The notes beneath the pieces are model-generated. The model searched no databases. It saw nothing but the letters and a program-made list of their open reading frames with translations, and was not told where the DNA came from. From assembly GCF_056712565.1 (NCBI RefSeq), contig NZ_CM160072.1: a DNA stretch of 64,000 nt; one strand, written 5' to 3'. Shown here piece by piece: positions 8,626 through 12,700 of the stretch; the stretch's first letter is position 1; each line of letters opens with the position of its first letter. A program made the translations under genes and the position numbers.

Positions 8626-8701
8626 AGATTCTCCAGAGGTAATGTAGGGATTGTTTTAATTCCCGCTCCCTTATGGGAGAAGGTTAACGCTTGGGTAACC
8701 C

Positions 8702-8907
8702 TTGCCGAATGTAGGCCGGATAAGGCGTTATACGCCGCATCCGGCAATCAATGCCTGATGCGACGCTGTCGCGTCTTATCAGGCCTACAGCCGTTGCCGA
8801 ATGTAGGCCGGATAAGGCGTTCACGCCGCATCCGGCAACCAGCGCCTGATGCGCCGCTGTCGCGTCTTATCAGGCCTACAAACCGTTACCGACTCGCATC
8901 CGGCAAT
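8702..8907. repeat. BIME: tandem duplication of a 92-bp unit of two REP-like palindromes (about 2.2 copies)
   Basis: Unit starting at 8702 repeats at 8794 with a few substitutions, followed by a partial third copy; contains GCCGGATAAGGCGTT..ACGCCGCATCCGGC and GCCTGATGCG..CGTCTTATCAGGCCTAC. Confidence 0.85.
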
Positions 8908-8913
8908 TGTGGG

Positions 8914-10872
8914 TTACGATGGCATCGCGATGGCCTGCTTCTCTTCAAGCAGCTTCTCGACTACGCCAGGATCGGCAAGCGTCGAGGTATCGCCCAGGTT
9001 GCTGGTATCGCCCGCCGCAATTTTGCGCAGAATACGGCGCATAATTTTGCCGGAGCGGGTTTTAGGCAGGGAGTCGGTCCAGTGCAGCACGTCTGGCGTC
9101 GCCAGCGGGCCAATCTCTTTACGCACCCAGTTGCGGACTTCTGCGTACAGTTCTGGTGACGGTTCCTCCCCGTGATTAAGCGTGACGTAGGCGTAGATCG
9201 CCTGACCTTTAATATTGTGCGGAATACCGACCACAGCGGCTTCGGCAATTTTCGGATGCGCCACCAGCGCCGACTCAATCTCTGCCGTCCCCAGGCGGTG
9301 ACCGGAGACGTTCAGCACGTCGTCCACGCGCCCGGTGATCCAGTAATAGCCATCTTCATCGCGACGCGCGCCGTCGCCGCTGAAATACATATTTTTGAAG
9401 GTGGAGAAGTAGGTCTGCTCAAAACGTTCGTGATCGCCAAACAGAGTACGCGCCTGACCCGGCCAGGAGTCGGTGATCACCAGACTGCCTTCGGTGGCCC
9501 CCTCCAGCGGGTTACCTTCGTTATCGACCAGCGCTGGTTGCACGCCGAAGAACGGACGTGTTGCCGAACCGGCTTTCAGCTCGGTAGCGCCAGGCAGTGG
9601 CGTGATCATGAAACCGCCAGTTTCGGTCTGCCACCAGGTGTCGACCACCGGGCATTTCTCATTGCCGATCTTCTTCCAGTACCACTCCCACGCTTCCGGG
9701 TTAATTGGCTCGCCCACGGAACCGAGAATGCGCAGCGACGAACGGTCGGTGCCTTCGATCGCTTTATCGCCTTCCGCCATCAGCGCGCGAATCGCCGTGG
9801 GCGCGGTATAGAGAATATTGACCTGATGCTTGTCCACCACCTGCGCCATACGGGCAGGCGTCGGCCAGTTCGGTACGCCTTCAAACATCAGCGTGGTCGC
9901 GCCGCAGGCCAGCGGGCCATACAGCAAATAACTGTGTCCGGTAACCCAGCCCACATCGGCGGTGCACCAGTAGATGTCGCCCGGATGATAATCAAAGACA
10001 TATTTAAAGGTCAGCGCCGCGTACACCAGATAACCGCCGGTAGTGTGCAGCACGCCTTTTGGCTTACCGGTAGAACCGGAGGTATAGAGAATAAACAGCG
10101 GATCTTCGGCGTTCATCTCTTCCGCCTGGTGCTGATCGCTGGCTTGCTCAACCAGGTCGTGCCACCACAGGTCGCGCCCTTCCTGCCAGTCAATTTTTCC
10201 GCCAGTACGCTTCAGTACCACCACATGCTCTACGCTGGTGACGTTCGGGTTTTTCAGCGCGTCATCAACGTTTTTCTTCAGCGGAATACTACGCCCGGCA
10301 CGCACACCTTCGTCGGAAGTGATCACCAGTCGTGAACTGGAGTCGATAATGCGTCCGGCAACGGCTTCCGGCGAGAAGCCGCCGAAAATCACCGAATGTA
10401 CCGCGCCAATGCGGGCGCAGGCCAGCATCGCGACCGCGGCTTCCGGTACCATCGGCATATAAATCGCAACTACGTCACCTTTTTTAATGCCCAGTTCGAG
10501 CAGGGTATTGGCGAAGCGGCAGACGTCGCGGTGCAGCTCTTTATAGCTAATATGTTTGCTCTGGCTGGCGTCGTCGCCTTCCCAGATGATGGCGGTACGA
10601 TCGCCGTTTTCTTGCAGATGGCGGTCAAGGCAGTTTGCCGCCAGATTCAGCGTGCCGTCCTCGTACCATTTAATGGACACATTACCGGGGGCAAAGGAGG
10701 TGTTTTTCACCTTCTGGTACGGTGTGATCCAGTCGAGAATTTTTCCCTGTTCGCCCCAGAAGGTATCTGGTGCGTTAATAGATTGTTGATACATCGCCTC
10801 GTACTGCTGAGGGTTTATCAGGCAACGGTCTGCGATGTTGGCAGGAATGGTGTGTTTGTGAATTTGACTCAT
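8914..10872 (-). CDS. acs: Acetyl-CoA synthetase (AMP-forming)
   Basis: 652-aa ORF recognised along its whole length as E. coli Acs. Confidence 0.95.
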
Positions 10873-11089
10873 GCTTTTGTTCTCCTTGTAAGATGTTAAT
10901 AATATGTGGCATAAGCGTTAAATGTAGGGGTATTGGCAGTTTTGTTTAGTATTTGGGCGACAGATCACGCAAAAGTAGAATTGTGCAAATAAACGGCAGG
11001 GTAATTTTTGAAGGTCAGCAACAAAAGTTGATTAATTCTTTGAGGAACATGCAGTTATGCATGCTGTTGAAAAAGAGGAAGATACTGAC

Positions 11090-11105
11090 TAACTCTAAAG
11101 TGGTA
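11090..11105 (+). promoter_or_regulatory. Candidate NarL/NarP 7-2-7 site TAACTCT-AA-AGTGGTA in the nrfA promoter
   Basis: Inverted heptamers with 2-bp spacer, centred at 11097.5, which is 33 bp upstream of the FNR-like site centre, as expected for -74.5 and -41.5. Confidence 0.5.
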
Positions 11106-11123
11106 TTTTACATGCACTTACAA

Positions 11124-11137
11124 TTGATTAAAGACAA
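11124..11137 (+). promoter_or_regulatory. Candidate FNR site TTGAT-TAAA-GACAA for the nrfA promoter
   Basis: Perfect left half-site and a degenerate right half-site, centred at 11130.5; implies a transcription start near 11172. Confidence 0.5.
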
Positions 11138-11257
11138 CATTCATAGTGTGGTTATTTGTTACACATAGGGACGAGCAATGTCATGACAGTGTAGGTGCGG
11201 TTACTGTCGTGAAAAACAATAAAAACCGCCATTGCAACAATGGCGCAATTCGGATGA

Positions 11258-12700
<1,443 letters not shown>

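Follow-up and report, generated by a model that had tools for sequence, protein, structure and literature searches.

Activator sites of the nrf operon promoter in a 64,000-nucleotide stretch of Escherichia coli DNA

The segment at positions 11090-11137 of the window, meaning the whole 64,000-nucleotide stretch of contig NZ_CM160072.1 (assembly GCF_056712565.1) that was analysed, is with a probability of about 0.97 pnrf, the nrf operon promoter of a non-K-12 E. coli strain, at which FNR, an oxygen sensor, acts as a class II activator and NarL or NarP, both nitrate/nitrite regulators, relieves repression by IHF. The initial annotation had recognised here an FNR site and a NarL/NarP heptamer pair 33 bp apart. 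Both motifs and their spacing are present in the window sequence exactly as given there; the observation is confirmed, its interpretation is supported, and the feature is one that was already known. Few complex promoters of E. coli have been dissected as thoroughly as pnrf, and the identification carries little weight as a discovery. It does provide a calibration point, in that reasoning from site spacing in the sequence alone predicted the mapped transcription start to the exact base. In what follows, the sequence, coordinates, spacing, position of +1 and conservation come from the present analysis, and binding, activation, IHF displacement and the effects of Fis and CsrA are taken from the literature on K-12.

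Activator sites and transcription start

The segment lies between two divergent genes, both assigned from their open reading frames and the K-12 annotation. On the minus strand is acs (8914-10872), which encodes acetyl-CoA synthetase, and on the plus strand is nrfA (11264-12700), which encodes the cytochrome c552 nitrite reductase and is followed by nrfB, nrfC and nrfD. The interval between the acs ATG (10872) and the nrfA ATG (11264) measures 391 bp; 5413 complete E. coli genomes out of 5426 have it. Strain FDAARGOS_536 has it with 100% identity and K-12 MG1655 with 99%, the window departing from the latter by 4 differences in 391 bp, none in either site. These are an A for G at 10891, which is position +2 of the acsP2 transcript; a T for C at 11144 (pnrf -28); an A for G at 11171 (-1); and a C run, directly ahead of the nrfA ATG, that is one base shorter. 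The degree of identity, together with the flanking acs and nrfA genes, establishes orthology to K-12 pnrf, and by its sequence the window is that of an E. coli strain other than K-12.

The FNR-like site, TTGATTAAAGACAA, occupies 11124-11137 (centre 11130.5) and has two mismatches to TTGAT-N4-ATCAA. The NarL/NarP site, TAACTCT-AA-AGTGGTA, occupies 11090-11105 (centre 11097.5); it consists of inverted heptamers with 2 bp between them, and similarly has two mismatches to TACYYMT-NN-AKRRGTA. The two centres are 33 bp apart, and the pair sits immediately upstream of nrfA. When up to two mismatches are allowed, the FNR consensus has 41 matches in the window against 28 expected, and the 7-2-7 consensus has 2 against 2.1 expected; singly, neither motif is better than chance in the window. 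The pair at exactly 33 bp was present in none of 300 simulated windows (first-order Markov), and its analytic expectation is about 0.002 per window.

Since the positions -41.5 and -74.5 are themselves defined from +1, the transcription start was located by anchors independent of the FNR and NarL sites. The first is the p+102A substitution, which turns nrfA codon 3 from AGG into AGA (Godfrey et al. 2017, PMC5434802). This places the K-12 ATG at +94, and +1 is thus the C at 4287671 of NC_000913.3, equivalent to window position 11172. The second anchor is the promoter of O157:H7, which is reported to have one base different from K-12, "at position -7" (PMC5434802). In the O157:H7 genome, the sole difference from K-12 in the promoter stretch is an A to T change aligned to window position 11165. 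The -7 base is therefore 11165, and +1 is again 11172. The base at 11172 is a C, as is the initiating nucleotide of K-12 pnrf (PMC5434802).

From spacing considerations, the initial annotation had placed the nrf start near 11172, had estimated a leader of about 90 nt, and had regarded a start mapped far from 11172 as evidence to the contrary. The K-12 start, when transferred by alignment, falls at 11172, so that the prediction is correct to the base by two independent published anchors. The leader is 92 nt in the window; K-12, which has one more C before the ATG, therefore has 93 nt. With +1 at 11172, the sequence supports the assignment of the FNR site to -41.5 and of the NarL/NarP site to -74.5, positions that equal those published for K-12 (PMC5434802).

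The core promoter contains an extended -10 element, TG-T-TACACA (11157-11165, plus strand), with the TG at -15/-14 and the hexamer TACACA (11160-11165) at -12 to -7. This hexamer is K-12-like, unlike the improved TACACT of O157:H7. The -10 hexamer of O157:H7 is printed as TATACT (PMC5434802), whereas the genome reads TACACT. The latter is a single change from the K-12 TACACA, at -7, and matches the paper's own description of one change (PMC5434802); the genome sequence and the stated -7 position were followed here. A generic sigma-70 promoter scan of 10800-11350 gave no matches, a result that is expected for an activator-dependent promoter and is uninformative, lending no independent support.

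Regulation of pnrf

In K-12, pnrf carries FNR at -41.5 and NarL/NarP at -74.5 (Godfrey et al. 2017, PMC5434802). FNR at -41.5 suffices for anaerobic activation, and activity falls by about 100-fold in fnr strains (Table 1, PMC5434802). FNR activates the nrfABCDEFG operon directly; its ChIP-seq peak is at 4,285,670 and its site at -41.5 (Myers et al. 2013). The promoter is repressed by IHF, bound between the two sites, and by Fis, bound over the -10 element; NarL or NarP at -74.5 displaces IHF, leading to nitrite induction, and in rich medium Fis shuts pnrf down (PMC5434802). In addition, CsrA represses translation via a GGA motif that overlaps codon 3 of nrfA (PMC5434802). By its sequence, this GGA corresponds to 11271-11273 on the plus strand of the window. 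If the offset between genome versions is, as we assume, 1977 bp, the FNR ChIP-seq peak lies about 18 bp from the centre of the site.

The FNR and NarL/NarP sites of the window are identical to those of K-12 pnrf, as is the 33-bp spacing between them (Tyson et al. 1994; Browning et al. 2002-2010; Godfrey et al. 2017). The two promoters also share the TACACA hexamer with its TG extension, the C at +1 and the neighbouring genes. In O157:H7 the sites and their spacing are again the same as in the window, but the base at -7 is a T (TACACT), whereas the window keeps the A of K-12. The -7T promoter of O157:H7 is stronger, partly FNR-independent and insensitive to Fis (PMC5434802). Because the window keeps the K-12 base at -7, its promoter should retain strict FNR dependence and behave like that of K-12, unlike that of O157:H7. 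The -28T and -1A differences could nonetheless cause promoter strength, and even the exact start nucleotide, to differ slightly from K-12.

In the mechanism proposed for the window, FNR would bind its imperfect site at 11124-11137 (-41.5) under anaerobiosis and, as a class II activator, would recruit RNA polymerase to a poor extended -10 element without a usable -35, transcription then beginning at the C at 11172. In the presence of nitrite or low nitrate, phosphorylated NarL or NarP would bind the 7-2-7 site at -74.5 and displace IHF from its repressing site between the activator sites, thereby allowing full induction. Fis, positioned over the -10 element, would turn pnrf off in rich medium, and CsrA would repress translation at the start of nrfA. 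Furthermore, FNR binding would silence the weak divergent promoter acsP1, which lies in the same 48 bp. The scheme resembles that of E. coli pnir, which like pnrf is an FNR class II promoter at which NarL/NarP act by countering repression by nucleoid proteins. In pnir, however, the NarL/NarP site is at -69.5 as opposed to -74.5 in pnrf, and the promoter drives another operon.

Conservation and alternative readings of the segment

One NrfA scan of species-representative genomes gave 34 loci, 29 of which were used, namely those in which NrfA was matched from residue 1 and the full upstream flank was available. FNR-like and 7-2-7 sites lie exactly 33 bp apart in 26 of these 29 other enterobacterial species, in a set that comprises Escherichia, Citrobacter, Salmonella, Trabulsiella, Intestinirhabdus and an Enterobacter isolate. 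The FNR site itself lies anywhere from 133.5 to 140.5 bp from the ATG, depending on the species, with the 33-bp spacing unchanged. The heptamers vary in the more distant genera (TAACCCTTAAGGTGTA, TACCCCTAAAGTGGCA), and the 7-2-7 form and its position are kept.

Over 28 species, the bases of the window are matched with a mean identity of 0.95 in the 7-2-7 site, 0.96 in the FNR site and 0.93 in the spacer between them (11106-11123), the region in which the literature puts the repressing IHF I; further upstream it is 0.56. The conserved block begins with the 7-2-7 site and ends with the -10 element; upstream of the 7-2-7 site the sequence is unalignable between genera. In pnrf of Salmonella and Citrobacter, for example, the FNR and 7-2-7 sites are as far apart as here and the block is conserved throughout, from -82 to -8, whereas the upstream sequence is unrelated and there are differences near +1 and in the length of the leader. 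In a single genome, Citrobacter amalonaticus AUH_CA_2023_1, the aligned FNR site reads TTGACTAAAGACAA, with a T to C change in the TTGAT half-site and an intact 7-2-7 site. A sequencing error could account for this change, as could a natural mutation that weakens activation by FNR.

Of the 5336 E. coli records that match the 48-bp segment carrying the two sites, 5278 have it in identical form. The adjoining core-promoter sequence of 48 bp (11138-11185) could be detected in only 1083 E. coli records, and only 492 are identical. The activator sites are thus fixed within E. coli and the core promoter is polymorphic, the haplotype of the window being a minority one among E. coli genomes. Together, the invariant FNR-to-NarL/NarP spacing, across genera as well as within E. 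coli, and the polymorphism of the adjoining core promoter fit the published evidence that strains tune the strength of pnrf via the -10 and start region, not via the activator sites.

The segment also overlaps a promoter of the opposite strand. The acsP1 and acsP2 sequences have been printed, with starts 224 and 20 nt from the acs ATG, respectively (Olvera et al. 2009, PMC2759082), and both match the minus strand of the window exactly, which bears out the initial annotation in describing the interval as shared with the acs promoters. acsP1 maps to 11096-11134, with its +1 at 11096, equivalent to pnrf -76. Transcription from acsP1 therefore starts within the 7-2-7 site, and the sequence upstream of that start crosses the FNR site. 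acsP2 maps to 10892-10930, with its +1 at 10892. On the strength of this overlap, and of the full repression of acsP1 by FNR in vitro (PMC5434802), the primary role of the segment could be taken to be that of core promoter for acsP1, where FNR and NarL would chiefly repress acs. This reading is improbable, however, as acsP1 is weak and acs is transcribed mainly from acsP2 (PMC5434802, PMC2759082). Moreover, the -41.5/-74.5 geometry is set from pnrf, and it is nrf induction that depends on these sites. The function of acsP1 is an addition to the role of the segment in pnrf, and no alternative to it.

Upstream of acsP2 are two CRP-like sites, 53 bp apart, at 10954-10969 and 11007-11022, which places them at -69.5 and -122.5 from acsP2. 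We take these to be the published positions of CRP I and CRP II (Beatty et al. 2003). The interval contains a second FNR-like match at 11008-11021, which most simply would be the CRP II site itself.

A small open reading frame annotated in K-12, ytcB (b4821, 18 aa), extends from 11112 to 11168 on the plus strand and overlaps both the FNR site and the -10 element. The possibility that the block is conserved for coding YtcB, and not for regulator binding, draws on this annotation and on the fact that the changes at 11144 (relative to K-12) and at 11165 (in O157:H7) are both synonymous in the ytcB frame. Even so, it is less probable still than a primary role in acsP1. Only 13 of 28 species have a start codon where that of ytcB aligns, most Citrobacter and Salmonella arizonae having ATA there, whereas the DNA block is conserved in all 28. 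Conservation also sets in 5' of the ATG, with the 7-2-7 site, and all three codon positions share in it. In addition, the reading frame lies wholly upstream of the pnrf start, the sole known plus-strand start site, and we know of no plus-strand promoter able to transcribe it. Searching the literature for ytcB of E. coli gave nothing but unrelated matches, from Bacillus and others. Given the patchy start codon and a conserved block that begins upstream of the reading frame, YtcB coding was rejected as the cause of the conservation.

Least probable of all is that both motifs are chance matches to degenerate consensus sequences, without a regulatory role: each motif alone does occur at about the chance rate and carries two mismatches, but a chance origin of the pair is excluded by its absence from the simulated windows, by the retention of the exact 33-bp spacing across six genera, by the near-invariance of the segment in more than 5000 E. 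coli genomes, and by the published binding, mutational and ChIP data for pnrf.

The nrfA leader and neighbouring repeats

With the segment read as pnrf, all of the locus is accounted for except the nrfA 5' leader (11172-11263, plus strand). It contains two predicted hairpins, at 11181-11212 and 11227-11245, joined by an A-rich linker (11213-11226) that resembles an AAN repeat. The fold of the single sequence, with z = -1.56, is not significant alone. Across 28 species, 96% of the pair cells in the hairpins hold standard pairs, as compared with 27-60% when the partners are slid, and 7 pairs are changed on both sides. Judged solely by these cross-species pair counts, the hairpin pairing appears to be conserved across enterobacterial genera, with some compensatory changes. 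An Rfam scan of 10700-11500 gave no meaningful match, the only one being a chance-level lncRNA match with E = 0.13.

The role of the long conserved nrfA leader has been stated to be unclear (Godfrey et al. 2017, PMC5434802), and in Salmonella CsrA affects transcriptional fusions too (PMC5434802). The leader might be a dedicated post-transcriptional control element, such as a platform for Hfq and small RNAs or for CsrA bridging; alternatively, hairpin 2 and a T-run on the minus strand might form a terminator that shields acs from antisense transcription. We regard either suggestion as tentative and rather unlikely. On the minus strand, hairpin 2 (11245-11227) is followed by GTTTTTATTGTTTTT, a T-run that extends to about 11212, and the arrangement resembles an intrinsic terminator directed toward acs. 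A terminator scan found 1 site, at 11245-11227 on the minus strand, against 0.5 expected, and the fold of this candidate hairpin is unremarkable (z = -0.24).

Two further repeats were observed nearby. A perfect inverted repeat, CATGCA-GTTA-TGCATG, lies at 11049-11064, with its centre near pnrf -115.5. Its ATGCA-rich sequence recalls the half-sites of NsrR, and presumably makes it a candidate for the published "upstream" NsrR site of pnrf. In the spacer between acs and yjcH, a unit of about 91 bp occurs twice in tandem (8699-8880), its repeats falling into families of 31 nt and 58 nt that are 93-97% identical. From their sequence (GCCGGATAAGGCGTT..., ...CTTATCAGGCCTACA), these copies look like REP/BIME elements, an ordinary intergenic repeat of E. 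coli.
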